Numbered from the stretch's first letter, positions 1 through 64,000 are shown. The stretch is DNA of 64,000 nucleotides from Patescibacteria group bacterium (GCA_038062795.1 JBBTWM010000033.1:5615-69614), one strand, 5' to 3'. The notes: generated by a model not told the origin, from the letters alone. Made by a program: numbers and translations.

Positions 1-1377
1 GTCCTGCAAATTGTAGCATTCAGCGCGACTTTTTTGTTGACCCTATTTCTCACACCTGAGATATTCGGTGTTTTTTACGTCGTTTCCGCAATAATTTCTT
101 TTTTGGGTTATTTCTCTGACATAGGGCTGGCAGCGGCGCTCGTGCAAAAAAAAGATGAGGTAACGCGGGAAGATCTCGCGACAACATTTGTCATCCAACA
201 ATTGTTGGTTGTGATACTCGTTTCGTTGTCGCTCATATTTTCCGGACCGATTGCGGCGTTTTACCGACTGGATATAACCGGTGTCTGGCTTTTTCGTGCG
301 CTCGCTGTCTCATTTTTTCTTTCTTCCCTCAAGACGATTCCCTCCGTGCTTCTGGAGCGCAGGTTAGCGTTTGATCGCCTCGTGATACCGCAAATTGTTG
401 AGACACTGGGTTTTTATACTGTTGCGGTATATTTGGCATGGAAGGGAGAAGGTATCACCAGTTTTACCTGGGCAGTGCTCGTTCGCGGGGTATTAGGCCT
501 GGTCACCATGTATATAGTTGAACCGTGGGTACCGGCCCTGGTTTTTTCCCGGCAAAGCGCTAAAAAACTTATGTCCTTTGGGCTGCCGTTCCAGATGAAT
601 TCATTTTTGGCGCTTCTCAAGGACGATCTGTTAACGTTGTTTCTGGGGAGGGTATTACCGTTTGCTGAGGTGGGGTATATAGGATGGGCAAAAAAATGGG
701 CGGAGGTGCCGCTCCGGCTTATCATGGACAGTGTCGTACGGGTGACCTTCCCTACATATTCCAGACTGCAACACGATAAAGCATTGCTGGTAAAAGCGAT
801 AGATAAAACGATTTTCGGATTGGCCGGAGCAATATTACCGATTTCCTCCGGTTTGCTGTTTTTTGTTCACCCTATGGTGCAATTGATTCCGAAATACGGC
901 AAATGGGAACCAGCGTTAGTGTCGTTTTATCTTTTTGTTTTTTCTTCCGCGATTGCCGCATTATCGACGCCTCTCATGAGTGCATTAAATGCCGTGGGGA
1001 ATATCCGCACGACCTTAAAGTTTATGGTTGGTTGGACGGTCAGTACCTGGGTACTCACCGTCATTCTCTTACGGTTTTTTGGGTTTAACGGCGTGGCATT
1101 AGCGCTTCTTGTTGTCTCGGGGTCGCTGTATCTTGTCATACGGGTAACCAGGCGTGTTGCTGATTTTTCGTTTATCAGTAATGTAAAAGGTCCGGTTGCA
1201 GCAGCAGGTATACAGGGTGGGGTATACGCAGTTCTCCTCACTATGGTGCCGCACACGTATCCGTGGCTTTTTGCGGTTGGCGGCGCGGGCGTTATACTGT
1301 ATGGAGGTCTTCTGTATTGGATGGAATCCGGCAGGATTAATGCATTTGTCGCAACCATACGAAGGAGCATACGATGA
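1..1377 (+). CDS. Wzx/MOP-family polysaccharide flippase, C-terminal part (5' truncated by window edge)
   Basis: The frame is open from base 1, and the listed ORF begins at an internal TTG. The product is multi-TM and hydrophobic, typical of the C-terminal half of a polysaccharide biosynthesis flippase. Confidence 0.55.
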   Translation, partial: VLQIVAFSATFLLTLFLTPEIFGVFYVVSAIISFLGYFSDIGLAAALVQKKDEVTREDLATTFVIQQLLVVILVSLSLIFSGPIAAFYRLDITGVWLFRALAVSFFLSSLKTIPSVLLERRLAFDRLVIPQIVETLGFYTVAVYLAWKGEGITSFTWAVLVRGVLGLVTMYIVEPWVPALVFSRQSAKKLMSFGLPFQMNSFLALLKDDLLTLFLGRVLPFAEVGYIGWAKKWAEVPLRLIMDSVVRVTFPTYSRLQHDKALLVKAIDKTIFGLAGAILPISSGLLFFVHPMVQLIPKYGKWEPALVSFYLFVFSSAIAALSTPLMSALNAVGNIRTTLKFMVGWTVSTWVLTVILLRFFGFNGVALALLVVSGSLYLVIRVTRRVADFSFISNVKGPVAAAGIQGGVYAVLLTMVPHTYPWLFAVGGAGVILYGGLLYWMESGRINAFVATIRRSIR

Positions 1378-2279
1378 AATTAAGTATCGTCATAAGTACC
1401 TATAACCGTGCCGAAAGCCTTACGCGGACGCTTACTTCTGTGAAGCGCTTCGCTCATGAAATTATTGTTATAGATAACGGATCAACGGATCAGACGAAAC
1501 AGGTCGCGGAACAATTTGGGGCTGTCGTTTATGACCGGCCGAATAATCTGATGCTTAATATCAACAAAAATTACGGATTCACCAAAGCTTCGGGTGATTG
1601 GATACTCTGTCTTGATGATGATGAAGAAATTCCGCCTGAATTAGCCGGAGAAATCAAAAAAGCAATGACCGCGCAGGACGTGAGCGGGTACTGGATTCCA
1701 CGGAAAAATATTATTTTCGGCCGCTGGATCAGGCACGGCATATGGTGGCCCGACCGGCAGCTACGGCTATTTAAAAAAGGAACCGGTACGTATCCGGAAA
1801 AGCATGTTCATGAATATGTGGAAGTAATGGGCTCCGCAGGAACCCTGGAAAACGCGTACATACATTATAACTACGACACACTTGGCCAGTATTTGGATAA
1901 AATGCAGCACATTTATACCGAAAGCGAAGTAAAAAAATATGTGTCAGCCGGATACCGTATAAGCTGGCGTGACGCCATACGTTTTCCCGCTTCGGATTTT
2001 ATGAAATTATATTTCGCCCAAAACGGATATAAAGACGGTTTACACGGTCTCGTTCTTGCGATGCTTCAGGCGTTTTATTCCTTTATTATCTTTGTAAAGC
2101 TTTGGGAACGGGAAAAATTCAGGGAGATAGATATACCCCCGCCAAGCGCGCTGGAAGAGGTTGAGAAAACCGGTAAGGAAATGTCCTATTGGATCCTAAC
2201 GACAAAAATCCGGCAGGAAACTAACCCCATAGTCAGACTGTGGCAACAGATGCTCCGCAAAGCGAAGCGTTTATCATGA
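1374..2279 (+). CDS. family 2 glycosyltransferase
   Basis: N-terminal MKLSIVISTYNRAESL...VIDNGSTDQT and a DDDE motif are the GT2 signature. The C-terminal WIRHGIWWPDRQLRLF motif is shared with the GT2s at 3171 and 32675. The ATGA start overlaps the upstream stop. Confidence 0.8.
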   Translation: MKLSIVISTYNRAESLTRTLTSVKRFAHEIIVIDNGSTDQTKQVAEQFGAVVYDRPNNLMLNINKNYGFTKASGDWILCLDDDEEIPPELAGEIKKAMTAQDVSGYWIPRKNIIFGRWIRHGIWWPDRQLRLFKKGTGTYPEKHVHEYVEVMGSAGTLENAYIHYNYDTLGQYLDKMQHIYTESEVKKYVSAGYRISWRDAIRFPASDFMKLYFAQNGYKDGLHGLVLAMLQAFYSFIIFVKLWEREKFREIDIPPPSALEEVEKTGKEMSYWILTTKIRQETNPIVRLWQQMLRKAKRLS

Positions 2280-3196
2280 AAAAAATTACCCTGGTTATTG
2301 TCAATTGGAACGGAAGTGCTGATACCGCCAATTGCCTGTCTTCAATTTTGCATATGAAGAAGCAAGGCGTAGCGCTTGAAACCGTTGTCGTAGATAACGG
2401 TTCAACCGACAACTCCGTTGCGAAATTATCGGCTGGATTCCCGTGGGTAACGATACTGGCTGTCGATAAGAATTTAGGGTTCACCGGCGGAAACAATACC
2501 GGCATCCGGTATGCCATGCTGCATAACACGGAGTATATATGGTTATTAAATAACGATACTATAGTTGCCCCCGACGCGCTAAAACTTGTCGAGGCGTTTG
2601 CCGACAGTAAAGTAGGAATAGCGGGATCAAAAATTTATTTTGCGCCGGGGCATGAATATCATAAGGCCCGATATACAAAAAAAGAATTAGGACGGGTATT
2701 TTGGTACGCTGGAGGACTTATCGATTGGGACAATATGTATGCAAGTCACCGCGGTGTTGATGAAGTCGAGGCGGGGCAATATGATGACGCTCAGGAAACT
2801 TCGTTTGTCACCGGATGTTCAATGATGGTAAAGCGGGAAGTAATCCGGAGTGTAGGAGAGCTTGATGACCGATACTATCTCTATCTTGAGGATTTGGATT
2901 TTGGGTTGCGGGCAAAAGCTGCCGGCTACCATTTGGTGTATTATCCCAAATCCGTGATCTGGCACGTGAATGCGGGCTCATCGGGTGGAGCCGGGAATCC
3001 GATCCATGATTATTATATTACCCGGAACAGATTGTTAGTGGGGATGCGGTATGCGCCGTTTAGGACCAAAGCAGCCCTCCTTCGCGAAGCGTGGGGTTTG
3101 GCGCGGGGCGGTAACCGGGAAAAGAAACAAGCGGTCATTGATGCGTTTTGGGGGAAGTGGGGCAAGCAATATGAGCCGAAAAAAAATAACACTTAG
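2276..3196 (+). CDS. family 2 glycosyltransferase
   Basis: ITLVIVNWNG...VVVDNGSTDNS is a GT2 fold. I chose the internal ATG at 2276 (ATGA overlap with the upstream stop). The longer ORF from 2240 would overlap the upstream gene by 40 nt. Confidence 0.75.
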   Translation: MKKITLVIVNWNGSADTANCLSSILHMKKQGVALETVVVDNGSTDNSVAKLSAGFPWVTILAVDKNLGFTGGNNTGIRYAMLHNTEYIWLLNNDTIVAPDALKLVEAFADSKVGIAGSKIYFAPGHEYHKARYTKKELGRVFWYAGGLIDWDNMYASHRGVDEVEAGQYDDAQETSFVTGCSMMVKREVIRSVGELDDRYYLYLEDLDFGLRAKAAGYHLVYYPKSVIWHVNAGSSGGAGNPIHDYYITRNRLLVGMRYAPFRTKAALLREAWGLARGGNREKKQAVIDAFWGKWGKQYEPKKNNT

Positions 3197-3941
3197 CGTG
3201 ATTATTATTGCAAAAAACGAAGAAGCCCGTATAGGGAAGTGTCTTGATGCGCTGGAATTTGCCGATGAACGGATAGTCGTTGATAATAGTTCGTCCGATC
3301 GTACGTCTCAAGTCGCTACAGAGCATGACGCAATCGTGCAGTTTGCACATTCCACGGATTTTGCCTTGCTACGAAATAACGCTGCTTCAAAGGTAAGAGG
3401 AGAGTGGCTATTGTATGTTGATGCGGACGAGATCGTGACGCCGGAATTAGGACGCAACATACGGCATATCATAACGGTGTGGAACCCGTCTTGTGAAACC
3501 GGGTATGAGATCCACCGAAAAAATTATTATCTCGGAAGAGCTTGGCCGACCGGAGAATGGATGCTTCGGTTATTCCGGCGCGATTCCTTCAAGGAATGGC
3601 GCGGCGAGTTACACGAGACCCCTGTTGTTTCCGGCGCGATCGGAAGAATCCAGGGCGATCTGTTACATGATACCCACCGGACGGTAACCGAGATGGTTGC
3701 AAAAACCAATGAATGGAGCGAGACCGAAGCGCTTCTTCGCAAAGCAATTCATCATCCGCCTATTACCTGGTGGCGGATTATCCGGGTGACACTCACGGGA
3801 TTCTGGAATTCATTTATCGGGCAAGGCGGATGGCGGATCGGCACGGTAGGCTGGATAGAAAGTATGTATCAGGGTTTCAGCATGTTTATCACTTACGCGA
3901 AATTGTGGGAGAAGCAACAAAAGAAAAATTATGAAAAGTAG
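3171..3941 (+). CDS. family 2 glycosyltransferase
   Basis: The GT2 domain begins at MSRKKITLSVIIIAKNEE..VVDNSSSDRT. The 3051 ATG would give a 146-nt overlap with the upstream gene, so I prefer 3171. Confidence 0.7.
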   Translation: MSRKKITLSVIIIAKNEEARIGKCLDALEFADERIVVDNSSSDRTSQVATEHDAIVQFAHSTDFALLRNNAASKVRGEWLLYVDADEIVTPELGRNIRHIITVWNPSCETGYEIHRKNYYLGRAWPTGEWMLRLFRRDSFKEWRGELHETPVVSGAIGRIQGDLLHDTHRTVTEMVAKTNEWSETEALLRKAIHHPPITWWRIIRVTLTGFWNSFIGQGGWRIGTVGWIESMYQGFSMFITYAKLWEKQQKKNYEK

Positions 3942-4758
3942 ACCAGTTGATACAGCGAAAATTGCATTATTCAGAGGAAGAAAGATACGAAGGATTCTTT
4001 ATCACAATGAATGGTGGTTTTCCGTTGTCGATATTGTTGAAGCACTGACCAATTCAGATAGACCAAGAAAATACTGGAGTGATTTAAAGAAAAAACTTAT
4101 TCATGAAGGTTACCGCGAAGTGTCCGAAAAAATCGGACAGTTGAAATTAATAGCTCCTGACGGCAGATTACGTGAGACTGACTGTGGGAATACTGAAACT
4201 ATTTTTCGGATTATACAAGCTATCCCATCTCCCAAAGCTGAACCTTTGAAGCGCTGGTTGGCACGCGTCGGATATGAACGAGTAAAGGAGATAGAAGATC
4301 CTGAGTTATCAACCAAGAGGACGAGGATGCTCTATACATTGAAAGGATACCCGGATGATTGGATCGAAAAACGCATGCGTGGTATTGCGATCCGCGAGGA
4401 GCTTACTGATGAGTGGTATAAGCGGGGCGCTCAAGAACAGAGAGATTATGAAATATTGACCGCCGAAATTTCTAAGGCTACATTCGGTATCACTCCCCTT
4501 CAATACAAAAAACTGAAAGGTTTAAAGAGAGAAAATCTTCGTGATCATATGGATGATTTTGAATTGATTTTCACCATGTTGGGGGAGCGCTCAACCACGG
4601 AAATTCATCGGAACGAAAACTCCAAAGGTGTCCCAAAGCTACAATCCGATGCGCGTGCCGGCGGCGAGATAGCAGGTGGCGCTAGGAGAAAATTAGAAAA
4701 GCGTCTTGGCAGGCCGATTGTTTCAAAGAAGAATTATCTGCCCGAAAATACCTCATGA
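3931..4758 (+). CDS. BRO-N domain / DinD (DNA-damage-inducible protein D)-like protein
   Basis: N-terminal IALFRGRKIRRILYHNEWWFSVVDIVEAL matches the BRO-N consensus (R....G..WF...DV...L). The ~275 aa length and a basic C-terminal half resemble E. coli DinD. Its start overlaps the GT2 stop. Confidence 0.5.
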   Translation: MKSRPVDTAKIALFRGRKIRRILYHNEWWFSVVDIVEALTNSDRPRKYWSDLKKKLIHEGYREVSEKIGQLKLIAPDGRLRETDCGNTETIFRIIQAIPSPKAEPLKRWLARVGYERVKEIEDPELSTKRTRMLYTLKGYPDDWIEKRMRGIAIREELTDEWYKRGAQEQRDYEILTAEISKATFGITPLQYKKLKGLKRENLRDHMDDFELIFTMLGERSTTEIHRNENSKGVPKLQSDARAGGEIAGGARRKLEKRLGRPIVSKKNYLPENTS

Positions 4759-5393
4759 AAACTTATACATGTATTTTATTTGATTGGGATGGATGTTTGG
4801 CAAAGTCATTGGATATTGCGCTTTATGCCTATAAGGTGTCGTTTCGAAAATATGATATTTCGTTAAGCGATAAGAAAATAACACACGAAGTATTCGGTGA
4901 CTGGCAAGCCCCTCAAAAACTAGGAATTCGTGACATAACACAATATTGGGAAGATTTTCATAAGATACTGAATAAGACATATTCTCATGTTCCGCTATAC
5001 GAGCATGTACAAGAGGTATTAACGGAATTGAAAAAAAGAAAGAAAAAGCTTGCTTTAGTTTCTTCGTCTCGGCGATCTACGCTCAACGCTCCGCTGACAT
5101 ATCATAAATTATATCCATATTTCGATGTCATTATGTCAGTGGACAACGTAAAAAAAGATAAACCGAATCCTGAGATTGTTTACAAAACTTTAAGAAAACT
5201 TCGTGCCGGTAAATCGGAAAGTTTGCTTGTAGGAGATTCCAAGAACGATCTCCTAGCTGCAAAAAGCGCCAGTGTAGATTCCGTTCTCTTTTATCCGAAG
5301 CACAATCAGTTATTTTATGATTTTGATATCCTAAAAACATACGATCCAACCTATATCATTAGCGATTTACGAGAACTTTTAACAACCGTATAG
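4755..5393 (+). CDS. HAD-IA family hydrolase/phosphatase
   Basis: All four HAD motifs are present: LFDWDG (DxDG), LVSSS, KKDKPNP and GDSKND. ATGA overlap with the upstream gene. Confidence 0.8.
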   Translation: MKTYTCILFDWDGCLAKSLDIALYAYKVSFRKYDISLSDKKITHEVFGDWQAPQKLGIRDITQYWEDFHKILNKTYSHVPLYEHVQEVLTELKKRKKKLALVSSSRRSTLNAPLTYHKLYPYFDVIMSVDNVKKDKPNPEIVYKTLRKLRAGKSESLLVGDSKNDLLAAKSASVDSVLFYPKHNQLFYDFDILKTYDPTYIISDLRELLTTV

Positions 5394-5396
5394 ATT

Positions 5397-7721
5397 ATGT
5401 CGCGTAAACAAATATTTGCTTTGATGAAATATTGGCCGATTGGAATAATTGTGGCGGTTTGGCTGGTATTTGCCTATCCTTATTGGGGAAAGGGGCTCGT
5501 ACCGTTTCCCTCTAGGTATTTGGTGACATTTTTTGCGCCGTGGAGTAGTACCTACGGCATGCCGGTGAAAAACAATGCCATGCCGGATGTTATCACGCAA
5601 ATATACCCGTGGAAACGCGTGACGATAGATGCCTGGAAACACGGTGAAGTGCCGCTTTGGAATCCGTATAGTTTTTCGGGAACCGCGCACGCCGGCAACT
5701 ATCAGAGCGCGGTATTTTCGCCGGTCAACCTGTTATTTTTTCTGTTGCCGGAGTTGCACGCATGGAGTCTCATGATTTTGTTGCAGCCGGTACTTGCGGC
5801 GTGGTTTATGATGCTGTTTCTCCGGTCTCTTGGGATCAGCCGGGAAGGCAGTGTTATCGGCAGCATTGCGTTTATGTTTTGCGGATTTATCGTCGTCTGG
5901 ATGGCATACGGAACGCTCGGCTTCGCAGTGCTTTTCCTGCCCTTGATTCTTTACGCTATCAATATATTTGTACGATACGGCAACAAATGGACGGCCACAG
6001 GAGTTGCCGCAGCAGTCTGCACCTCACTTTTATCCGGACATTTCCAGATGAGCGTGTACGTACTGTTATACGCCGTGAGTTTTCTCGTGTATCTTACCGT
6101 CCGCGGGCAAAAGCGCAGAAGAATCTGGTTTGCCCTGTTGTTTGTGCTGCTTGGAGTAGGTTTAGCTGCTGTGCAGATAGTGACCGGTTTTACGGCGTAT
6201 GCCGGTGCCGTACGCAGCAGCTTATTTCTCAAAGGTGAAGTCATTCCCTGGCAATACATTGCAACACTATTTTCTCCTGATTTTTACGGGAATCCCGTGA
6301 CAAGAAACGATTGGTTCGGGCACTATGCCGAATGGGCGAGTTATATCGGCGTTACCGCGCTCCTATTGGCTTTTCTTGCTATCGCAGCAAACCATAAGAC
6401 CGCTGTGATCCGGTATTTTATCGTCACGACCGTTATTCCCTTATTGCTGGCTTTTCAGACGCCGCTCGTAGATTTGCTGTTTGCGATGAAAATTCCGGTT
6501 CTCTCGACAAGTTCCGCTTCCCGGATCATTATTCTGGTAAGCTTTTCACTGGCTGTATTGTCCGGATTTGGAATTGATGTGCTTCGGGAAGCGTGGGCGA
6601 AGCGCATAGGCAAGCGCGTGCTGTTGTGGGCAGTGGGCAGCATGGTGTGTGTTGGAGTCGTATGGGTTGTTCTTCTTGTCCTCCGTCCGCTGCCGGGAGA
6701 TAAACTCGTCATTGCCGTACGCAATATGTACTTGCCGACAGCGCTCATGGGGATCACGTTGGCAGTTGCCGGAGCCGGATTTTTACTACCGAAACGTTTA
6801 TTGGTATTACTGCCGGTTGTTCTCATAGTGCTTGCCGGTGCTGATTCATACCGCTTTGCAGCGAAATGGATGCCTTTTGATGAAAAAGCATTTGTATACC
6901 CCACCCTCCCCGTTATCACAAAGACACAGGCATTAATCGCCGGAGAACATGGCAGGGTATTCGGAAACATCGGCAACGAAGCAGGTTCCGCTTTCGGTAT
7001 TCCGCTTATCGAAGGGTACGATGCGGTATATCAGGAGCGGTACGGTAGATTTATCACTGCGGTGAGTACCGGAGTGCCGGGGACGCCCGAGCGGTCTGTG
7101 GTGCGGTTTGATAAGAGTGGGAAATATGCTGAGGATGTGCTGCAGTTACTCGGTGTCCGGTATTACATGCATAAAAAAAGCGACGGGAGATTTCCGTGGG
7201 CATATCCGTTTTGGGAGTTTCCGCAATACAATCGCGTGTGGGAGGATGAGCATTTTGAGATTATGGAAAATACCAAAAGCCTGCCGAGAGTTTTCTTGGC
7301 GTCATCGTATGCGATCGCTAAGACGGATACAGAGATACTTGATGCCTTATTTTCAAAGCATATTAACCGGCGGGAAACGCTTGTGCTGGAGCGCACGCCG
7401 GTATTTGATCCGCAGGAAGGTGTCGGGACTGCCACGATTTCTTCATACCGTCCGACGGAGGTAGTTATACAGACGGCTTCTGTTGTACCGAAGTTGTTAT
7501 TTTTATCTGACGTCTACGATCCGGGCTGGAAGGTGTCTGTAGATGGGGTACCGGTTGCATTGCATCGGGCTGATTTTGATTTCCGGGCAGTCGCAGTTCC
7601 GGAAGGAACGCACATCGTCCGTATGTGGTATTGGCCGGCGAGTATCACGATCGGCTTTGTCATCGCGGGATTTGCTACACTGACAATAGCCGGATTTCTA
7701 TTGAGGAAAGATGAGTTATGA
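5397..7721 (+). CDS. YfhO-family membrane glycosyltransferase-like protein
   Basis: 774 aa. It has a polytopic N-terminus with QIYPWKR...LWNPYSFSGT and a C-terminal extracytoplasmic domain. Paralogs lie at 8769 and 17934(-). Confidence 0.65.
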   Translation: MSRKQIFALMKYWPIGIIVAVWLVFAYPYWGKGLVPFPSRYLVTFFAPWSSTYGMPVKNNAMPDVITQIYPWKRVTIDAWKHGEVPLWNPYSFSGTAHAGNYQSAVFSPVNLLFFLLPELHAWSLMILLQPVLAAWFMMLFLRSLGISREGSVIGSIAFMFCGFIVVWMAYGTLGFAVLFLPLILYAINIFVRYGNKWTATGVAAAVCTSLLSGHFQMSVYVLLYAVSFLVYLTVRGQKRRRIWFALLFVLLGVGLAAVQIVTGFTAYAGAVRSSLFLKGEVIPWQYIATLFSPDFYGNPVTRNDWFGHYAEWASYIGVTALLLAFLAIAANHKTAVIRYFIVTTVIPLLLAFQTPLVDLLFAMKIPVLSTSSASRIIILVSFSLAVLSGFGIDVLREAWAKRIGKRVLLWAVGSMVCVGVVWVVLLVLRPLPGDKLVIAVRNMYLPTALMGITLAVAGAGFLLPKRLLVLLPVVLIVLAGADSYRFAAKWMPFDEKAFVYPTLPVITKTQALIAGEHGRVFGNIGNEAGSAFGIPLIEGYDAVYQERYGRFITAVSTGVPGTPERSVVRFDKSGKYAEDVLQLLGVRYYMHKKSDGRFPWAYPFWEFPQYNRVWEDEHFEIMENTKSLPRVFLASSYAIAKTDTEILDALFSKHINRRETLVLERTPVFDPQEGVGTATISSYRPTEVVIQTASVVPKLLFLSDVYDPGWKVSVDGVPVALHRADFDFRAVAVPEGTHIVRMWYWPASITIGFVIAGFATLTIAGFLLRKDEL

Positions 7722-8767: not shown

Positions 8768-8768
8768 T

Positions 8769-11957: not shown

Positions 11958-11969
11958 TATTTTCCCCCT

Positions 11970-16299: not shown

Positions 16300-16302
16300 A
16301 GA

Positions 16303-44342: not shown

Positions 44343-44394
44343 CATGTGTCGATGCGTTATGATTACTCATTATTGACGAAAGGGGAATTATTGT

Positions 44395-46319: not shown

Positions 46320-46322
46320 TTT

Positions 46323-47510: not shown

Positions 47511-47513
47511 ATT

Positions 47514-49650: not shown

Positions 49651-49656
49651 TATAAT
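49625..49656 (+). promoter_or_regulatory. possible sigma70-like promoter (TTGACT - 20 nt - TATAAT) upstream of 49680 gene
   Basis: TTGACT at ~49625 and TATAAT at ~49651. Spacing is long at 20 nt, and the -35 lies in the 3' end of the upstream CDS. Confidence 0.25.
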
Positions 49657-49679
49657 CAATATCTTTTAATACGCTATAC

Positions 49680-50675: not shown

Positions 50676-50682
50676 TACAACT

Positions 50683-52726: not shown

Positions 52727-52794
52727 GCATAGAGTATCTGCATAAGCGCAATCTTGCGTTTACGGTGAATACCCTATAAGATAAATCGTTATAC

Positions 52795-56400: not shown

Positions 56401-56947
56401 GGACATCGGGGTGACAGTATATTACTGTGCCTCAACGCAGATGACACAAGCGGGCGAGAGAGAGGACATATCTCTCGAGGAGATAGCTGCGCCAAGCCTT
56501 TTTATCAGCGCCCATGAACAATATGCATCAAACGCGCGAGTGGAAAATGCATCGTATACTCGCGTAGATCAAACCAAATACTATGTAGAATCGAATCAGG
56601 AGGCATGGCCTACGATATTGGTATTTAATCAGAACTACGACCGGAAGTGGAAGCTCTACGACATACAGGGTGATAACGGCCTCAATTCCTACCTGCCGGC
56701 GATTATGGAAACATGGTTTCAAAAGCCAATTGTGGAAAGCGATCATTTTGCAGTGAACGGGTACGCAAATGCCTGGTTATTGCGCAGCGAACCGTCAGGA
56801 AGGCTCGTGCTTGAATATTATCCGCAGCAGCTTCTCTACAAGGGCATCGTGGTAACAATAGCCAGTTTCGTTATACTTATAAGTGTGTATATGACAAATG
56901 GGAAGCGCGACAAACGGGAATCATTAACACAAATAGGAGCAGTATGA
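53426..56947 (+). CDS. very large (1173 aa) membrane protein: N-terminal polytopic GT-C-like domain plus ~700-aa extracytoplasmic domain
   Basis: The first ~480 aa are multi-TM with a TGHDAGYPIN loop motif. The remainder is hydrophilic with one C-terminal TM segment (VVTIASFVILISVYM). Confidence 0.45.
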   Translation: MMRLQSFRKIIFDIVVIAFISLIPLFWFPNGYIVTGHDAGYPINIQETFRNRLFTWNSQQNFGIDNTPNVGAVPIHAIEAVFYVMGASPAQAQQFSFMFWLFLMMASMYTLAYSFQRDIPYRFFPLIASVLYVVNFFLLALWRYGAATTFSAYCALPIILALVIAALQNRIPVLKAGIAISFAAMVFNGGGGLSLPLFGALLISVLSAIVYFAALEGKNGWKVIVWKTMYLGLCIIILSAILNAYWLFPFIHYATSNFARGLEANGGAAGVLAWTDSVSKYTSLINLFRLQGIPEWYDNAVHPFSNAYLTNPLLIGASFLFAPLAYASLLFANEIRQKQLILYFVLLSLIAAFFSAGTHAPTGWLFAQFMLHVPGFVIFRSAQYKFVPALYLSFAILISFSLNYLIYKTPVWEKFKAISPRLLRTSAVFICILVVLGYHWPYFRTEFFQYSPPLTTLLKVPDYVLAYDEWIDDHLDDDKRTLILPLYNSSWKAAVYSWKYFSLYSLFNIIRPKPFLEHSQMLSGSQLALMERFSHEILHQGPLARQFAEFLGVRYILLTGDVDFSLRGMLTENPADYKKALSNYPVLWTNGPWQLYEAPSVTDTKPLYYIKSLTQYIGREPDITGVVINGANNFFHQYDKSHPMAVAISRDIPISNTIEALLCDSCVMETAVNKIEVPHSLILPGSIFYTLKQWKEKPLEHESLPESQLIINKLGLSLKRVSDIASLVQLNKSERSIMVTADTLMAYWKYIEEKVTTGENSEPDYSLLHRIEGYVLSEKEVLLKAYGESKSGGVRQRLISVINKLTQIEVAIVGVRNKTSILKQYRVSQVAQNAEFFLDADSLSKDVNQSYIYPMAMEFNGKSLGITPVAENERVSLGTFDLRGVDRITLRFPQPANVLINRRVESVVAFGTTNFCIVGEAGNFNRNKSYRIHMPDPSGTPEGAAIHVVRKKNSVTKDEGTSINYFTNPDVTFSINRTATVPQNYYFSGIDGDIGVTVYYCASTQMTQAGEREDISLEEIAAPSLFISAHEQYASNARVENASYTRVDQTKYYVESNQEAWPTILVFNQNYDRKWKLYDIQGDNGLNSYLPAIMETWFQKPIVESDHFAVNGYANAWLLRSEPSGRLVLEYYPQQLLYKGIVVTIASFVILISVYMTNGKRDKRESLTQIGAV

Positions 56948-57315
56948 TGGAACGTCTAAGACCGATACAACACGCGTTTGAACAAAAAATTCTCGCATAC
57001 GGGCAGGCTCATGTGTTTGAGCTGGAAATATTTGCGGTAGCTATACTTGCTGTGGCCCTAATTGGGAAAATTCCGTATCTCAACATAGTTATTACAAAGC
57101 AAATTTCTTTGCTGCTGCTTATTGTTTTTGGGGCATATTTATTTCAGATAAAAAAACAGGTGTTATTAACCTTTTCATTGTTATTATTTGCGTGCGCACT
57201 TGTGTTGTCTCTTGCAGGAAAAATGGACTCAGCTGAATCTATAGGCACTATCATATATGCATTACTATGGTTTGTGGCAATGCTTTATGTTAAGGATATA
57301 TGGCGGCAAATATGA
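56944..57315 (+). CDS. small membrane protein (3-4 TM), hypothetical
   Basis: 123 aa, hydrophobic, with ATGA overlap to the upstream gene. Confidence 0.35.
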
Positions 57316-57908
57316 ACAAATATTTTTCTATACTTGCAAGAAAAGGATTTGTTGAGTGTGTTGTCGGCGCAGTATCGATAAGTGTTATGAAACTATACTC
57401 TCTCGTGCAATCTGTTTTTTTGAATACGCGCGGATACGGCATAGGATCCGGCGTTATAGTGAGTCCCACAGCAGTTTTCTTTCAAAGCAGAAGTAGAGCT
57501 ATCTCGGTCGGGCGAAACACTCGAATCGGGAGAAATACGAGAATTAATGCAGGATTTGACGGAAAAATAAACATTGGCGCAAATGCACATATAGATGATG
57601 GTACGTTTATTATGGCCCAGGAGGATATACGCATAGGCAGCGATACGTGGATAGCCGGGTGTTGTTTTATTACCGACTTTAATCATTCATTTGAAAAAAG
57701 GAACATAAAAATATCAGATCAGGGATATGAAACGAAGCCGGTACGTATAGGCGCAGATGTTTGGATAGGTACGCACAGCGTCATATTACCTGGTGTCACA
57801 ATAGGCGATGGGGCAGTCATTGGGGCAGGATCGATTGTGACCAAGAGTGTACCCCCATATGCGGTAGTTGCAGGAAACCCTGCGAAGATCATAAAACTAA
57901 GAAAATGA
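57300..57908 (+). CDS. hexapeptide-repeat (LbH) O-acetyltransferase, maltose/galactoside acetyltransferase-like
   Basis: Repeated [LIV]G..x..I hexads: [63 protein letters not shown]...[10 protein letters not shown]. An alternative ATG lies at 57312. Confidence 0.75.
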
Positions 57909-60898
57909 ATTTCTTACGTAAGCACGCATTTGTTATATTCATTGGGTTTGTTATTGCATTCCTGTATCACAACTGGTTTTCCAAAGGGTTATTGACTGCT
58001 CCTGATTTTTCCTATATATCCCCGTTGCAACTGCATGATCTGAAAGATCTTCCGTTTGCTTGGTCGAGCATGTTTGGTTCAGGACTCGGGGGATCGACCT
58101 TTAATATTCTGAATTTAGAAACGTACTTACATCTTGGTGTTCAATTGGTAGTTTTTCTGATGCATATACCATGGAACGCAGCATATCGAATTCTTTTCTT
58201 TTGGCCGTTTCTTCTCATTGGCTCCGTTTCATCATTTTATTTCTGCCATGAAATATTGAAGCACAAGGCTATTTCCGCATTGGGAATGCTTATCTACATG
58301 ACGAACACCTACGTACTGATGCTGGCGGGTGGTGGGCAGGTAGGGCTAATGATGGCCTATGCGTTCGCTCCATTAGTACTAGCGAGTTTTATAAAGAGGA
58401 ATACGGTGTTATTTATTTTTTCGACTGCAATGCTTTTGTTGTTTGATTTGCGATTCAGCTTTCTTATCGCCGGAGTGATAATGTTATATTCGTTATTTAT
58501 TATTCCGAGGAGAGAATGGGCCTCTCTCATGTTGTGGTGTATAGTTCCGCTGCTTATTGTTATCGGAATTCATAGCTTTTGGATTATTCCTACGGTATTT
58601 GGCGGCGGGTTGGCTTTGCCGGAGGGATATGGAAGTTCCGATTGGCTCAAATTTTTAAGCTGGGCGGAATTTTCAAAATCCCTTTCATTGCTTCACCCGA
58701 ATTGGCCGGAAAATATATTTGGTAAAACCTATTTTTTTCAGCCGGAGTTTATAGGGATTCCGATTGTCGCGTTTAGCTCGTTTTTGTTTATACGATCTCC
58801 AAAACAGAAAACGACCCGTCAGCATATCTTATTCTTTTCTCTATTAAGTTTAGTTGGTATATTTTTTTCGAAAGGGATTAACCCGCCTTTTGGTGGTGTG
58901 AATGAATGGTTTTTTTTGCACGCGCCTTTTTTTAATGGATTTCGGGATCCCACCAAGTTTTATTTGATAACTATTATTTCTTATAGCGTCCTTATCCCGT
59001 TTGCACTTTTAAATATTTCGGATTTATTAAAGGTGAAACTTCTAAAATACAGGAACATTATGTCACCCGTAACGTTGGTAATATTTTTAGGGCTATGGTT
59101 GGTAACGATACGTGCACTTGTCGTTGGAGATGTCGGCGGAACGTTCGGAAAATTAACCGTTCCAACGGCATATGATGATTTTGGTAAATTCGTTTATTCC
59201 AATAATTCCTTCGGACGGACATTGGTCGTTCCATGGAAAAACAGATTTGTATTTCAGTCGGAAAATCATCCCGTGGTGAATGCGAGGGATGTATTTCAGA
59301 CGACAGATATAGAGCGCATTGCTGCATTGTTTCGTGAACCGTCGACAGAAATGAAATTAAGGCAACTCGCGGTTAAATATGTCGTTGTACCGGATGATTT
59401 CACTAATGAGATTTTTCTAAATGACAGATCCCCTGATCCCGAGTTGCGGTCGCGCGTCGTAGGCATATTAGATAAGCTGCCTTATCTGGACAAAATAAAG
59501 AGATTTGACGGATTAGATTATTATGAATTTACAAAGTTTACCGGCCATTTTTTTACTATATTACCCAATCTGGATGCCGCGGTGTATGTACATCGTAAAA
59601 TAAGTCCTGTGACATATTCGGTTGATGTCACGTTGTCTCAACGACCTGTCGATGTCATATTTTCTGAAGCGTATGATCCTACTTGGGAGCTTTGGGATGG
59701 AGAAAAAATAGTTCACCCTCATAAAACGCCGGATGGAGTTATGGCATTCTCCATAGACTCGGATATAACCGGACAGCTTACTGTTCATAATACGAATCAG
59801 AGGTGGGTCGACTTAGGATATACGACGACATTGGTTGTGCTGATACTGATCATCTTGTTGGGGTATGTCCTATTGTGCAGGAGGTACCGTCTAGGATTTA
59901 AGATACATGCGGTGTTGCTGACTGTTGGAGTCAGTCTATATTTTATTTTCGTACAGAAAGATACGTCTCTCCATGCGTTATACGACAAGGATATTCTGTG
60001 GTCAACCGAGTGGCGACATTTATACAATCCAATTCTAGACAAATCGCTTATGGTGTCCCGTTATGGAGGCGCTGAAATAAGATTTCGCGTTCGTAATAGC
60101 AAGGAAATAGTGATACAAGCAGCGAGCTCCAACGATGAGGCGCATATACAGGGCATTGATGTGACAATAGACGGAAAAACCACAACGCTGGAAACTCCAA
60201 TCTACGATGCCAGGATGACTGTCGGTACGGCAGACTCTTTAAAGAAGCCGGTCGATGTAGTTATAAGGCATTGGTGCGCTGGGACAATGGGACCGTGTGA
60301 CTTGGCTATTACAGATATCCAGATCGATAAAGGAGCTTCTATTGAACCATCTGGACAGCATCAGAAAAAAATATTGGCTGTGTTAGGGGACTCGATCTCA
60401 GTTTCGTTTGGTAATCTGAATTATACTTATGCTCTTGTGGAAAAGCTTGGATATCGTTTGCATAACGCATCTATTTTTGGATCGACTATCGTTGAGGCGC
60501 AAGGTTGGGACTGGAGTATGAGCCGCTATCGCAAGGATATTATCGCCTACAAGCCTGATGTGTTGCTTATATTTTTGGGAACGAACGATTTATTGCACGA
60601 TAAACAGATTTTCCGCAATAATTATAATTCGATGCTCGGTGAGATCAAGGAGAAAAGTCCGAACACAAAAATTATTTCTTTTGGGTTATTACGAAGAAAA
60701 GACTTTACTTGGTTCCAAGTCACCAACGTTAGCAGAATAATTGCGTCTATTGCCGAAGAGAATAACGTCCAGTATGTTGATCCGTATAATTGGTTAGATG
60801 AAAATGACCTGCAGGACGTAGTGCATCCTTCTCCAAAGAGTCAACAAAAATTAGCCGATAGAATGTACGAGGCATTGTCTCAGGTTGTCGCTAATTGA
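57905..60898 (+). CDS. large membrane protein with C-terminal SGNH/GDSL hydrolase domain
   Basis: The N-terminal ~650 aa are polytopic. The C-terminus has GDSL block I ([10 protein letters not shown]), block III GTNDLL, and block [15 protein letters not shown] (the DxxH catalytic dyad). Confidence 0.6.
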
Positions 60899-60938: not shown

Positions 60939-62495
60939 ATGAACATGAGTAAGGTAACTGGTAAAAAGACTTCTCGGTATTTTCTATTTCTTTTATTTCT
61001 GTTGTTTGCAGTATTCCTTGCCGTAGTATTCCGGCTTTATCAGCGGATAGGCGTTTTTGGGTGCGGCGATGAGTGTATCAATTACACGGCTGGCTACTTT
61101 ATCCTCCTGGGCAAATCGCTTTACAGTCAAATATTTTTTAATCACCAACCGACATTGGCGTTTATAAGCACTTTCATACAATGGGTGTCACAGCCGAAGG
61201 ATCTCTATCATCTCGTGCTCTACCACAGGGTATTTATGATTTTATACTCGTTTGGTATGGCGGTGTTTCTGATTTGGCGTTTTCGGCTGCGCGCCATGTT
61301 ATTTTTACTTCTTTATGAAGGGACGAAATACTACATGTACGGATATCAATTTATCGGGGAGGCGCTTATCGTTTACCCGCTTGTATATCTTATCGGAGTA
61401 TTGTGGGAATCCTTCGAATTTAAACGAGTATCCCGAGTAGATATTTTTCTTACGGCAATCTTCACGAGTTTAGTGATTTGGACACGGGAGCCGTATGTGC
61501 CGGTAGCGGTAGTACTCGGCGGTATGCTTCTTTGGCGGGAGAAATCAAATCGGTATGCCCGCTGGGCAAGCGTTCTTATTATTTTCCTTTTGCTCGCGCC
61601 CTTTATCGTCATCCCTTTTGGGGAATACGTGTATCAGGTTATTGTCATTAACATCCCGGCGGCTAGCTCTGTGGTCGGTGGAGGGAATAGGATTTCATCT
61701 ATATTGTATTCGCTGCTCTATCCTATATTGTTGTTTTTCCATGGTAAATGGAGCTATTTGAGGTTGATAGAAATTGGTATCGCTTCATTTTTTTGGGTTA
61801 GTCTGGTTATTTGGTGGCGGGGAACCAAAAAATATACTCCGATAGGCATTTTGCTTCTTATCCTGGGACTTGCGGGTATTAGGACGGTAGCACCGGGAAC
61901 CATGTACTTTGAAGCGTTTCACATGCTCCCGTGGTATGCATTATTTGTCATGGTTACCGTATTGATCATGACCTCAATAAAAGAAAAAAAGATTCAGAGC
62001 ATATTAGTTGGTGCGTTTGTTATTTTTTTCTGTTGGGCATTTGCCTCGCCACAGTCATTTATATGGGAAAATGTGGATACGCGAGGCGAATTTGCGAGCC
62101 AATATTCCCAATATACCCAGTATTCTCAGGCGATACAAATAGCCATAAAGCCTTCTCAGACTCTATTTTTGGATGTGTGGGACGACATTATCTATTGGGA
62201 GGCCAAACGCACCTCTTCATACCCGTTAAGTATCTATATACCGGCGGAAAGTTCGATACCCAGGTATCAGGAAATGCGCAGTGCTATGTTTCTCGAGTCA
62301 CCTCCTGATGCGTATTACAGTTGTCCCGTTGCACAAACGCTCACGAACAGTCCTCCGCAGGTTGTGAAGCAGGATTATGTGCAGCTTTCCAGCATTGGTA
62401 AACCCAGCTGCTTGTATATCAAGAAGGTGATAGCAAAAGCGCTCACCCCGGATCAGTGGCAGCGACTTCATGATCTGGGATTTTCTCAACTGTAG
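60939..62495 (+). CDS. polytopic membrane protein, family A paralog (DE..HQP motif)
   Basis: GDECINYTAGYFILLGKSLYSQIFFNHQPT aligns with the 12891 protein. The ATG at 60939 is preferred over the TTG at 60885. Confidence 0.45.
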   Translation: MNMSKVTGKKTSRYFLFLLFLLFAVFLAVVFRLYQRIGVFGCGDECINYTAGYFILLGKSLYSQIFFNHQPTLAFISTFIQWVSQPKDLYHLVLYHRVFMILYSFGMAVFLIWRFRLRAMLFLLLYEGTKYYMYGYQFIGEALIVYPLVYLIGVLWESFEFKRVSRVDIFLTAIFTSLVIWTREPYVPVAVVLGGMLLWREKSNRYARWASVLIIFLLLAPFIVIPFGEYVYQVIVINIPAASSVVGGGNRISSILYSLLYPILLFFHGKWSYLRLIEIGIASFFWVSLVIWWRGTKKYTPIGILLLILGLAGIRTVAPGTMYFEAFHMLPWYALFVMVTVLIMTSIKEKKIQSILVGAFVIFFCWAFASPQSFIWENVDTRGEFASQYSQYTQYSQAIQIAIKPSQTLFLDVWDDIIYWEAKRTSSYPLSIYIPAESSIPRYQEMRSAMFLESPPDAYYSCPVAQTLTNSPPQVVKQDYVQLSSIGKPSCLYIKKVIAKALTPDQWQRLHDLGFSQL

Positions 62496-62520
62496 CGAAT
62501 TGCTATGGTACAATATCCGT

Positions 62521-63462
62521 ATGATGAAAGGCACAGTGGTCGTGACCGGGGGAGCTGGATTTATCGGTAGTCATCTGGTCGATGCACTGCTTGCCAGGGG
62601 TCACAAAGTATACGCGCTTGATAATCTCATTACCGGAAACGAAGAAAATCTTGCAGAGGCGAAAAAACACCCGGAGTTCACCTTCATCAAATATGACGTG
62701 ATAAACGAGTTGCCCGTTTTAGGGCAAATTGATTATATCTATCATCTTGCTTCTCCTGCGTCCGTCCCAGATTATCAGAAATATCCGGAAGAGACAGCGC
62801 TTGTAAACACCGTTGGTACGAGGGCGCTCCTGAAAGTTGCCAAAGCGCACGGGGCCACGTTTCTTTTTACCTCCACCTCGGAGGTGTATGGGGATCCTAA
62901 GGAACATCCCCAGAAGGAAACGTATTGGGGAAACGTAAATCCTAATGGAGTCCGCGCATGTTATGATGAATCCAAGCGCTTCGGAGAGATGATGACTATG
63001 TTATATATGCGCACATATGGCGTCGACGTGAGGATTGCCCGGATATTTAATACGTATGGCCCCAGGATGCGTCCTACCGACGGACGGGTGATATCTAATT
63101 TTGTGAACCAGGCGCTCAAGGGAGAACCCATTACGGTATATGGAGATGGTAAGCAAACGCGCTCGTTTTGTTTCATAAGCGATATGGTTGAGGGACTTGT
63201 GAGTCTTATGGAAAAGGAATTGACGAAGGGCGAAGTGGTGAATATCGGTAATCCGGAAGAATATACCATGATCGATTTGGCTCACAAGGTGAAAAAGATG
63301 ATGGGAGCTACTTCCGAAATTGTTTATACGGATTTACCATTAGATGACCCGATGCAACGAAGACCCGATATTTCAAAAGCGAAAAAATTGCTCAGCTGGG
63401 AACCCAAGGTGTCCGTAGACCAGGGACTCGAAAAAACAATTGCGTATTATAAGGCGCTGTAA
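62521..63462 (+). CDS. UDP-glucuronate decarboxylase (UDP-xylose synthase)
   Basis: VVVTGGAGFIGSHLVD, YDESKRFGE and VRIARIFNTYGPRM...GRVISNF are the UXS signature. Confidence 0.7.
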   Translation: MMKGTVVVTGGAGFIGSHLVDALLARGHKVYALDNLITGNEENLAEAKKHPEFTFIKYDVINELPVLGQIDYIYHLASPASVPDYQKYPEETALVNTVGTRALLKVAKAHGATFLFTSTSEVYGDPKEHPQKETYWGNVNPNGVRACYDESKRFGEMMTMLYMRTYGVDVRIARIFNTYGPRMRPTDGRVISNFVNQALKGEPITVYGDGKQTRSFCFISDMVEGLVSLMEKELTKGEVVNIGNPEEYTMIDLAHKVKKMMGATSEIVYTDLPLDDPMQRRPDISKAKKLLSWEPKVSVDQGLEKTIAYYKAL

Positions 63463-63466
63463 TGAA

Positions 63467-63688
63467 ATGAAGCCTCAAGATATATTATTTTTTCTTGCGT
63501 TTGGAGCCCTATTGGCTATCCGAAAACCGCGTTTGTTGGTTTTTGCAGGATTGGCCTCTCTGGCGCTTGCAATCCCGCTTTTTGCGACATGGACATTTTT
63601 TACGGCTGAACGCCTCACCTGGTATGCTGCGGCGTTTTTTATGACCTTCATCATTATTTCAACTTTCCGGCCTCATCAGGTACAATAA
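63467..63688 (+). CDS. small membrane protein, hypothetical (2 TM)
   Basis: MKPQDILFFLAFGALLAI...; 73 aa from the internal ATG. Confidence 0.3.
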   Translation: MKPQDILFFLAFGALLAIRKPRLLVFAGLASLALAIPLFATWTFFTAERLTWYAAAFFMTFIIISTFRPHQVQ

Positions 63689-63693
63689 AGGGC

Positions 63694-64000
63694 ATGAAGA
63701 TTCTGGTAACCGGAGGAGCCGGGTACATCGGCAGCCACATGACACGCATGCTGGCTGAACGCGGATATGAGCCCATAGTGCTCGATACGTTTGAATTTGG
63801 CCACAAAGAGGCACTTCCCGATGGGGTCAGAATAGTTATCGGAAATGTAGGAGACCCCATAGTAATCAAACAGGTGCTGAGTGATCATAGGGTCGATGGG
63901 GTTCTTCATTTCGCGGGGTATATACAGGTTGAGGAATCGGTACGATTGCCGATCCGGTATATGCACAATAATGTTGTCGCCCCGATCACCCTCCTTGATG
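63694..64000 (+). CDS. UDP-glucose 4-epimerase (GalE-like), 3' truncated by window edge
   Basis: MKILVTGGAGYIGSHMTRMLAERGYEPIVLD, and the frame stays open to the end of the window. Confidence 0.65.
   Translation, partial: MKILVTGGAGYIGSHMTRMLAERGYEPIVLDTFEFGHKEALPDGVRIVIGNVGDPIVIKQVLSDHRVDGVLHFAGYIQVEESVRLPIRYMHNNVVAPITLLD

Follow-up and report, generated by a model that had tools for sequence, protein, structure and literature searches.

A conserved locus rich in GT-C-type glycosyltransferases in Gottesmanbacteria-like Patescibacteria and its possible role in assembling a cell-envelope glycopolymer

The 64,000-nucleotide stretch of DNA analysed here, referred to below as the window, comes from a Patescibacteria group bacterium (GCA_038062795.1, JBBTWM010000033.1:5615-69614) and is dominated by genes for membrane-embedded glycosyltransferases of the GT-C type. 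We propose, with moderate confidence, that it represents the central two thirds of one supercluster for the biosynthesis of a cell-envelope glycopolymer, operating as a two-stage pathway that starts in the cytoplasm and is completed at the outer face of the membrane; most likely one large sugar polymer is built, rather than existing molecules being only decorated. What is observed directly is the gene content, the folds of the encoded enzymes, the conservation of their catalytic-loop residues, the boundaries of the cluster, and its orthology and colinearity in related genomes. By its sequence relationships, the host appears to be a Gottesmanbacteria-like organism (class Microgenomatia; Patescibacteria, or candidate phyla radiation, CPR) from groundwater, in which the cluster is chromosomal and vertically inherited.

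Nineteen polytopic membrane proteins other than flippases are encoded in the window, all of them of the GT-C type, and their genes span 35.4 kb, or 55% of its length. They were grouped by all-against-all BLASTP and profile-profile comparison (hhalign) into seven sequence families; thin profiles linked only the YfhO family with family B and the PMT_2 family with family C, and the addition of orthologues from other loci resolved family A, family C and the link between the AftD-like proteins and family B. A preliminary description of the window, made from the sequence alone, had counted about 18 such enzymes in at least five families, and its grouping (three YfhO-like, five PMT-like, three of family B, two each of families A and C, two DUF2029-like and two giants) was recovered unchanged, with Pfam matches for most members and AlphaFold2 and Foldseek for the groups that lack them; the motifs it had quoted for families A, B and C are likewise present. 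In what follows all genes lie on the plus strand except g13-g16, which lie on the minus strand.

The YfhO family comprises g7 (5397-7721, 774 aa, about 13 transmembrane [TM] segments), g9 (8751-11021, 756 aa, 31% identical to g7) and g15 (17934-20219, 761 aa), which score 63.6, 67.7 and 61.7 bits, respectively, against a PF09586 cut-off of 28.5. The PMT_2 family comprises g13 and g14 (14629-17937, 556 and 544 aa; PF13231/PF02366) and g19, g20 and g21 (24623-29539; 540, 557 and 542 aa; PF13231), the latter three with mutual identities of 30-35%. The 26.1-bit cut-off of PF13231 is exceeded by g14, g19, g20, g21 and also g17 of family C; g13, with 22.9 bits, falls under it, yet shows full-length identities of 27-31% to the other PMT_2 paralogues. 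Family B, which corresponds to Pfam PF10131 (PTPS_related), carries an H-D-G/S motif and consists of g16 (20140-21819; PF10131 E 8e-17), g23 (30942-32693; PF10131 E 1e-8; 33% identical to g16) and g27 (35102-36667; full-length identities of 28-31% to g16 and g23); it aligns with the YfhO family at 98% in hhalign. In family C the DQG motif stands at residue 34-35 of g17 (21820-23313; PF13231 31.2 bits) and g22 (29536-31038; no Pfam hit), whose families match each other at 99.9% (E 1e-34) and the PMT_2 family at 98%. Thus, the earlier view that families A, B and C are all uncharacterized stands for family A, B being PTPS_related and akin to YfhO, and C a divergent PMT_2 branch. The GT87/MptA_B-like family is formed by g18 (23355-24626; DUF2029-like, PF09594 E 1e-4, sub-threshold) and g26 (33876-35114; 34% identical to a paralogue in the left flank that carries PF26314, MptA_B_family), with an hhalign value of 89% between them. 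Family A (g12 and g48) and the AftD-like giants g45 and g47 complete the set.

A hydropathy scan predicts 6-13 TM segments in each of the 19 proteins, the AlphaFold2 models of g12 and g45 have helical membrane domains, and structural similarity of the GT-C kind to solved enzymes was found. All paralogues of the window keep an acidic residue in their first outward loop, and it is at least 90% conserved among 11-117 orthologues per family: D64 in the YfhO family, D36-E37 in PMT_2 (5 of 5 paralogues), D48 in family B, D35 in family C, D56 in the MptA_B-like proteins, D33-E34-D36 in family A and D38 in the AftD-like proteins. No GT-C paralogue looks like a decayed copy and, since paralogues within a family are only 22-35% identical (BLASTP), the duplications appear to be old, with every copy retained. 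The GT-C assignment is given by Pfam for the YfhO, PMT_2, PTPS_related and GT87 families, and for the two groups that lack Pfam hits it is suggested by the AlphaFold models. Because no protein has a Pfam hit to the MIR domain, the PMT_2 members are here called PMT_2-like GT-C enzymes and not protein O-mannosyltransferases. From the fold and the co-located GT2 enzymes resembling dolichyl-phosphate mannose synthase (DPMS), a lipid-phosphate-linked sugar would be the donor of the whole GT-C set.

Family A unites g12 (12891-14600, 569 aa; motif PDEFD...HHQPG) and g48 (60939-62495, 518 aa; motif GDE...NHQP), whose families align at 98.9% (E 1.9e-17). It has no Pfam, NCBIfam or PDB sequence match, relaxed scans (E ≤ 10 and E ≤ 1) included; the same relaxed Pfam and NCBIfam scans returned nothing usable for g12, g22, g45, the N-terminal part of g47 and g48, and single-sequence PDB searches with g45 and g12 returned nothing meaningful. 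When the family-A profile was compared with the PDB, only TM matches to GABA receptors were obtained, and these were judged spurious. The family is rare: of 1.84 billion cluster representatives, 1432 match it at E ≤ 1e-3 and 151 at E ≤ 1e-30. Relatives of g12 range over Gottesman-, Roizman-, Levy-, Woese- and Daviesbacteria. Of the GT-C enzymes in the cluster g12 is the best conserved: in the closest genome (Candidatus Gottesmanbacteria) it is 82-83% identical, against 61-76% for the neighbouring GT-C genes, and identity is still 35-40% in Levybacteria, which hints that g12 may perform a core, perhaps essential, step. A subgroup of family A consists of proteins of 660-760 aa with an N-terminal extension of about 120-230 aa (mostly about 140 aa). 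One contig labelled Methanolinea carries a weak relative (215 residues aligned at 25% identity), and the family may reach beyond CPR bacteria.

The larger giant, g45 (53429-56947, 1172 aa), has about 120 homologues, all of 1100-1190 aa and all from Microgenomates, many of which carry a precomputed match to PF11847, the N-terminal GT-C domain of AftD; no Pfam family matches g45 itself, even at E ≤ 10. The profile of its family matches Mycobacterium abscessus AftD (6W98) with E 4.5e-6. In the AlphaFold2 model (pLDDT 87.7, pTM 0.85) a membrane domain occupies residues 1-450; behind it come alpha/beta, four-helix-bundle and beta-sandwich domains, which face outward, and at the C-terminus a TM helix. 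Foldseek retrieves mycobacterial AftD over the full length (E 1.6e-16, 11% identity), followed by STT3, PglB, AftA and ArnT. By this model, fold and architecture would be AftD-like, which does not imply arabinofuranosyl specificity. The modelled four-helix bundle of g45 (residues 690-820) matches only designed helical bundles in the PDB. Precomputed hits to DUF5667 (PF18915), which stands alone in g25, also occur in several g45 homologues. The second giant, g47 (57905-60898, 997 aa), has an N-terminal domain 25% identical to that of g45 (E 5e-17) and, at residues 874-1029, a C-terminal SGNH/GDSL esterase or acyl-transfer domain (PF13472, E 2.5e-19), a fusion suggesting that glycosyl transfer is coupled, outside the membrane, to the handling of O-acyl groups. 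One close relative of the window (L067) lacks g46 and g47 and has instead a 674-aa protein with a faint PF11847 hit.

The candidate suppliers of lipid-linked donors are few. Only two of the eight GT2 enzymes in the window, g29 (37737-38450) and g31 (39693-40496), align near full length to polyprenyl-phosphate glycosyltransferases, a distinction that the preliminary description had missed, together with the flippase g30. For g29 the best NCBIfam model is AglJ (E 1.5e-35), the models for Dol-P hexose transferase, ArnC and PpgS also align over the full length, and the top PDB match is the Pyrococcus DPMS 5MLZ (E 7e-17); for g31 the best NCBIfam models are ArnC, PpgS and PgfS, and the PDB matches are DPMS 5MLZ (E 2e-8), then ArnC and GtrB. 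All NCBIfam scores of both proteins lie under the equivalog cut-offs. With two left-flank GT2 enzymes and one GT2-GtrA fusion, the number of candidate lipid-phosphate-sugar synthases in the whole cluster comes to five, the flank GT2 enzymes having as their top match PgfS of the Streptococcus mutans Pgf system. Five synthases face about 26 GT-C proteins, a ratio of about 1:5. Between g29 and g31 lies g30 (38453-39712), a divergent Wzx-type flippase that has no Pfam hit of its own and whose family matches PF01943 in 7 of 9 aligned members (E down to 1e-19); the adjacency of g30 and g31 is kept across Microgenomatia, Levybacteria-type loci included. GtrA (PF04138) has no hit in the window and occurs only as the domain fused to GT2 in the left flank, and its position is taken by g30, as in systems of the four-component GacIJKL type. 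In the GacI/GacK and WpsA/WpsG systems, a Wzx-type flippase and not GtrA moves the sugar or oligosaccharide linked to undecaprenyl phosphate (C55-P) (PMC9574508).

The full extent of the cluster became apparent from contigs that continue the window. Two contigs from Hainich groundwater 0.1-um-fraction assemblies (L003 and L005) match the ends of the window with 100% identity, and exact window proteins also occur in the metagenome-assembled genome (MAG) GCA_964362825.1; contigs of the window's own population stop before both cluster ends, and the boundaries were taken from relatives. Leftward, the order is a GT2-GtrA fusion, a family-C PMT, a DPMS-like GT2, an MptA_B-family GT-C, a PMT_2 protein, two family-B proteins and a second DPMS-like GT2, then g1. 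In six colinear relatives the left boundary is formed by TsaE, Sua5, TsaD, a 195-aa open reading frame (ORF) and a CAP-domain protein, after which the cluster starts with RmlA (E 6e-69), RmlB, RmlD, UDP-glucose dehydrogenase, a short-chain dehydrogenase/reductase (SDR) and the GT2-GtrA fusion. Rightward follow an epimerase, a GT4 fragment, a GT4, an acyltransferase, a GT2, a 1061-aa protein, a PMT and a GT4. In three of three colinear relatives, in which the 1061-aa giant is 90, 79 and 59% identical, the right end reads giant, PMT, GT4, GT2, GT4, GT4, ManC-like protein, Bac_transf protein and DUF4012 protein, followed by RecO and a tRNA synthetase. In these relatives the ManC-like enzyme (mannose-1-phosphate guanylyltransferase) and a WbaP-type phosphoglycosyltransferase lie about 13-14 kb past the right edge of the window, the latter, a 211-aa Bac_transf protein (EPS_sugtrans, E 3e-73), being the candidate for priming. 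The whole cluster thus measures about 96 kb and, on the coordinates of the window, reaches from roughly -15.5 kb to +80 kb, with housekeeping genes at both ends, and holds about 26 GT-C-type proteins (19 in the window, 5 to the left and 2 to the right) and at least 10 GT4 enzymes. If the genome is about 1.2 Mb, as the largest contigs of relatives (1.0-1.2 Mb) would suggest, the cluster would amount to about 8% of it.

The 1061-aa protein lies 3.9-7.1 kb to the right of the window end (L005, 15396-18581), has roughly 20 TM segments and is extremely conserved: over 1400 homologues exceed 50% identity, and NCBI names several of these O-antigen ligase family protein. Its match to Wzy_C is sub-threshold (E 0.003 for the protein itself; 28.9 bits in a homologue against a cut-off of 31.7); its C-terminal half contains a GDDFTWFRW loop and is PMT_2-like (hhalign 91.7%, E 8e-7), and its profile gave no PDB sequence match. 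It appears to be a Wzy_C/O-antigen-ligase-like N-terminal half fused to a PMT_2-like GT-C half. The DUF4012 protein (655-686 aa; no NCBIfam hit) is always the last of the cluster, directly after the priming phosphoglycosyltransferase (L067, 20574-22541; L068, 20733-22706; L069, 18169-20229). Within the window, scans of ORFs of at least 150 aa (E ≤ 0.01) gave no match to Bac_transf, Glycos_transf_4, Wzy_C, Wzz, ABC transporter or NTP_transferase. The preliminary description had taken the lack of a priming transferase, a polymerase and a nucleotidyltransferase as a sign that Gtr-like systems decorate an existing acceptor; the absence is true inside the window, and candidates for all three exist in the flanks, those for the priming transferase and the nucleotidyltransferases in relatives. 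Because the missing genes are an edge effect, with a priming transferase and a polymerase-like gene largely found next to the window, that inference is weakened.

Conservation of the locus extends well beyond one population. The genes g2, g3, g4 and g7-g18, the inverted block g13-g16 included, are colinear in about 15 Gottesmanbacteria loci, with 1:1 orthologues of 45-82% identity, and Levy-, Roizman- and Woesebacteria have clusters of the same families, in Levy- and Roizmanbacteria in other orders. Most Gottesmanbacteria loci lack g5 and g6, the g4 and g7 orthologues being adjacent there, although one (L024) has a g5 homologue with 51% identity; the pair looks like a small local insertion into the conserved cluster. 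The product of g5 has a Bro-N domain, which is common in phage and virus proteins, and phage or other mobile DNA was considered for this reason and rejected: housekeeping genes flank the locus, which is colinear on chromosomes of 0.3-1.2 Mb. Apparent strain differences from the Hainich contigs (in the g3/g4 region and in a PMT gene in L006) were also set aside: they are 100-nt breaks in alignments otherwise more than 99.8% identical, and are most likely scaffold gaps rather than real variation. Many GTDB representative MAGs that carry the cluster (L010, L014-L016, L018, L020 and others) are titled uncultured Gammaproteobacteria bacterium, and further carriers have titles referring to Deltaproteobacteria (one) and Acidiferrales (one); these record titles look wrong or like placeholders.

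In the pathway that we propose, nucleotide sugars would be produced in the cytoplasm by the RmlA, RmlB and RmlD proteins, UDP-glucose dehydrogenase and ManC-like enzyme of the flanks, and would be modified by the five SDR proteins of the window, its RfbH/PseC-like pyridoxal phosphate (PLP) enzyme, four methyltransferases and an acetyltransferase. The eight GT2 and six GT4 enzymes would then assemble oligosaccharides on polyprenyl phosphate, priming being performed by the WbaP-type phosphoglycosyltransferase of the right end and/or by a DPMS-like GT2 (on C55-P, as in the Wps system), and the lipid-linked oligosaccharides would be flipped by the Wzx-type proteins g1 and g30. At the outer face, the five DPMS/GtrB-like GT2 enzymes would supply a small set of polyprenyl-phosphate monosaccharide donors, from which each GT-C enzyme (19 in the window, about 26 in the cluster) would extend the glycan by one specific linkage; acyl groups may be added or removed by the SGNH domain of g47, and the Wzy_C-like/PMT_2-like fusion may polymerise the product or transfer it to its final acceptor. 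We infer the identity of the donors, the order of the steps, the choice between one and several products, and the acceptor. A single multi-step pathway fits better than independent systems because of the 1:5 ratio of synthases to GT-C enzymes, the interleaving of the genes and the lineage-wide conservation of a colinear set. Several points weigh against this proposal: the priming transferase and the nucleotidyltransferases are known only from relatives (with 59-90% identity of the giant); the match of the flanking giant to Wzy_C stays below the threshold; no LytR-CpsA-Psr (LCP) ligase, ABC exporter or Wzz was found in the ~96 kb, so that export and attachment are not fully explained; members of the YfhO and PMT families decorate teichoic acids and proteins elsewhere, and part of the GT-C set may have separate acceptors; and a shared target of all 19 enzymes is an assumption made for an uncultured host.

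The main alternative would be a set of mostly independent Gtr-like systems, each of three or four components, that decorate pre-existing acceptors at the outer face, no single polymer being made, which we consider possible but unlikely. All parts of such systems are there, namely the DPMS/GtrB-like GT2 enzymes, the Wzx-type g30 between g29 and g31 and the GtrA-GT2 fusion of the flank, and to this extent the earlier suggestion of Gtr-like decoration is borne out. YfhO-type and other GT-C proteins are the transferases of the corresponding systems in Bacillus, Listeria and lactococci (PMC5836110, PMC8035078, PMC9574508), and the low number of flippases is no obstacle, as one flippase of Lactococcus lactis serves three systems (PMC9574508). 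However, only five synthases are available for about 26 GT-C enzymes, and the cluster also has a priming phosphoglycosyltransferase, a sub-threshold Wzy_C protein, at least 10 GT4 enzymes and full sugar-nucleotide pathways. Known decoration loci vary between strains, whereas the paralogues of this locus are conserved 1:1 and in order across the lineage. In addition, no gene for an acceptor (S-layer protein, pilin or teichoic acid synthase), which the preliminary description had suggested seeking in the flanks, was found in the ~96 kb. By analogy, a mixed case is quite possible, with proteins or teichoic-acid-like polymers being decorated by some of the enzymes, because YfhO and PMT families have this role elsewhere (PMC5836110, PMC8035078).

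The absence of an encoded target bears equally on the idea that the locus serves chiefly protein O-glycosylation, with the PMT_2-type and related GT-C enzymes modifying Ser/Thr-rich surface proteins or pili, as in the actinobacterial Pmt/Ppm1 or the streptococcal Pgf system, and the remaining genes making sugars. PMT_2 likeness and the DE loop motif come together in seven window proteins and the flank GT2 enzymes match S. mutans PgfS best, but no protein has a MIR domain hit and, in known cases, glycans or lipoglycans are the targets of AftD-, MptA_B-, GT87- and YfhO-like enzymes, which makes this explanation improbable. Little probability is likewise given to the proposal that several unrelated polysaccharide or glycolipid loci lie side by side, uncoupled, for example a Wzx/Wzy-type heteropolysaccharide locus to the right and separate GT-C loci to the left, the supercluster being a by-product of genome streamlining. 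It would account for the distinct blocks, GT-C genes prevailing at 5-37 kb and cytoplasmic enzymes at 36-53 kb, and for the other orders in which Levy- and Roizmanbacteria hold the same families. Yet the blocks interleave, GT2, GT4 and methyltransferase genes lying among the GT-C genes and the GT-C genes g45-g48 among cytoplasmic ones; the arrangement between housekeeping genes is colinear across Gottesmanbacteria, and sugar-nucleotide genes stand at both extremes.

Among characterized systems, the proposed glycopolymer pathway is closest in logic to the cell-wall polysaccharides that are rich in rhamnose (Rha-CWPS) and to mycobacterial arabinogalactan and lipoarabinomannan (LAM). Lactococci and streptococci combine cytoplasmic assembly with a Wzx-type flippase and with GT-C enzymes in making one wall polysaccharide (PMC9574508, PMC8035078). 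The cluster belongs to neither system, because it has no RgpCD-type exporter or LCP ligase and no arabinose-donor pathway, and because several of its GT-C families have no counterpart there. With the Rha-CWPS systems (CsdAB/CflA, GacI/J/K/L, WpsA-J; PMC9574508) it shares rml genes, the assembly of lipid-linked units by cytoplasmic GT-A and GT-B enzymes, a DPMS-like GT-A enzyme that makes C55-P-sugar beside an adjoining Wzx-family flippase (g29-g30-g31, compared with GacI-GacK and WpsA-WpsG), GT-C enzymes that add mono- or oligosaccharides to the wall polysaccharide outside, and the combination of a terminal polymerase-type enzyme with a GT-C transferase. It differs in the number of GT-C enzymes (1-4 in Rha-CWPS loci, against 19 in the window and about 26 in the cluster, from seven families), and in that neither the RgpCD-type ABC exporter nor the LCP ligase was found. 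Rha-CWPS loci also measure roughly 20-25 kb, against about 96 kb here, in a CPR bacterium whose genome would comprise about 1 Mb.

The arabinogalactan, lipomannan and LAM pathways of mycobacteria and corynebacteria employ AftA-D, EmbA-C, MptA/B and PimE with polyprenyl-phosphate-sugar donors, and AftD structures are available (6W98, 6WBX). The likeness lies in many different GT-C enzymes, each assumed to form one linkage of a large external polymer, in AftD-like giants with outward soluble domains, in MptA_B-like and GT87-like members, and in few donor species for many transferases. The mycobacterial GT-C genes are more scattered, against a single locus here; identity to AftD is only about 11%, and YfhO, PTPS_related and family A have no counterpart there. 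As the window has no UbiA-type DPPR synthase and no DprE-type genes, there is no evidence for an arabinofuranose donor. The Gtr systems that glucosylate O-antigen (GtrA/GtrB/GtrC) and those that glycosylate lipoteichoic acid (CsbB/GtcA/YfhO; PMC5836110, PMC8035078) resemble the cluster in the GtrB/CsbB-like g29 and g31, in the YfhO-type g7, g9 and g15 and in the GtrA domain, fused here to a left-flank GT2. The cluster differs from them in having no stand-alone GtrA in the window, a synthase to GT-C ratio of about 1:5 instead of 1:1, genes that are conserved 1:1 in a lineage instead of phage-borne or strain-variable, and its embedding in a full polysaccharide cluster. With Wzx/Wzy O-antigen and capsule loci it has in common the Wzx proteins g1 and g30, the GT2, GT4 and sugar-modifying enzymes, the sub-threshold Wzy_C protein and, in relatives, the WbaP-type phosphoglycosyltransferase and nucleotidyltransferases at the cluster ends; no Wzz was found, the Wzy_C-like protein is a 1061-aa fusion with a PMT_2-like part, and more than half of the coding capacity is taken up by GT-C enzymes, which are absent from typical loci.

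The 49 genes of the window, obtained by ORF calling with Pfam and NCBIfam scans, are densely packed, with frequent overlaps of a few bases, and run from an edge-cut Wzx gene on the left to an edge-cut epimerase gene on the right; G+C content is 41-49%, and a tRNA scan and an Rfam search of the window found no tRNA and no Rfam family. The eight GT2 genes, which start at 1374 (g2), 2276 (g3), 3141 (g4), 11037 (g10), 32675 (g24), 37737 (g29), 39693 (g31) and 43481 (g35), and the six GT4 genes, which start at 7718 (g8), 36583 (g28), 42350 (g34), 45105 (g37), 48460 (g40) and 51491 (g43), agree exactly with the numbers given in the preliminary description. Sugar modification is represented by four S-adenosylmethionine (SAM)-dependent methyltransferases, five complete SDR dehydratases/epimerases and one RfbH/PseC-like PLP enzyme, beside one hexapeptide acyltransferase, one haloacid dehalogenase (HAD) phosphatase and the two Wzx-type flippases g1 and g30.

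At the left edge, g1 (1-1377) encodes a truncated Wzx-type (MOP) flippase (Polysacc_synt_3, E 2e-50), of 483 aa in the intact gene of contig L001, and is followed by the generic GT2 genes g2, g3 and g4 (1374-3941; PF00535), g3 being rhamnosyltransferase-like (TIGR01556, E 2e-16), and by the Bro-N protein g5 with the HAD phosphatase g6 (3931-5393; Pfam). Interspersed among the GT-C genes are the GT4 g8 (7718-8767; PF00534, E 1e-22), the GT2 g10 with the SAM methyltransferase g11 (11037-12833; Pfam), the GT2 g24 with the membrane-anchored DUF5667 protein g25 (32675-33975, g25 at 33367-33975; Pfam) and the GT4 g28 (36583-37731; PF00534, E 3e-29). According to Pfam and NCBIfam, the block g32-g44 (40507-53424) is a cytoplasmic sugar-nucleotide and assembly block, with the SDR proteins g32, g39, g41 and g42, the PLP enzyme g38, the methyltransferases g33, g36 and g44, the GT4 enzymes g34, g37, g40 and g43 and the GT2 g35. 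For g38 (46323-47510) the top NCBIfam model is RfbH, the CDP-6-deoxy-4-keto-hexose 3-dehydrase of 3,6-dideoxyhexose synthesis (E 1e-66, below the cut-off), which it fits better than a plain aminotransferase; because of this best match, the polymer may contain dideoxy or amino-dideoxy sugars. Between g45 and g47 lie a 122-aa ORF (56947-57315), which has no Pfam hit, and the acyltransferase g46 (Pfam Hexapep), together spanning 56947-57908, and the right end (62470-64000) holds the 4,6-dehydratase-like SDR g49, a 73-aa membrane ORF (63467-63688) and the edge-cut epimerase (Pfam, NCBIfam and L005 gene calls). The 122-aa and 73-aa ORFs, the latter with 2-3 predicted TM segments between two epimerase genes, occupy the same positions in relatives (L005-L008 and L067-L069), and a role as GacJ-like activators of a lipid-sugar synthase is conceivable for them.

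The kinds of enzymes found here and the logic that connects them are already known, and in the literature searched on glycosyltransferases, GT-C enzymes and mannosyltransferases of CPR bacteria, Microgenomates and Gottesmanbacteria no description of the cluster was found. What is new is its scale, a single conserved locus of an ultra-small genome encoding about 26 GT-C proteins of seven families, as well as the AftD-like giants outside Actinobacteria, the GT-C/SGNH fusion, the ligase-like/PMT_2-like fusion and a putative GT-C family (A) that has no Pfam or NCBIfam match and is supported by structural modelling. It is tentatively suggested that Microgenomatia make a major, hitherto undescribed and highly branched wall heteropolysaccharide of arabinogalactan- or LAM-like complexity, which would be built largely outside the membrane by the ~26 GT-C enzymes of this ~96-kb cluster, the family A core enzyme among them. 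CPR bacteria are thought to live attached to host cells, and their surface chemistry is essentially unknown. Taken together, the gene-by-gene conservation and the size of the cluster imply a central place for an elaborate surface glycopolymer in these organisms, for which a concrete list of parts is now available, consisting of five candidate lipid-sugar synthases, two flippases, about 26 GT-C enzymes and one priming enzyme.

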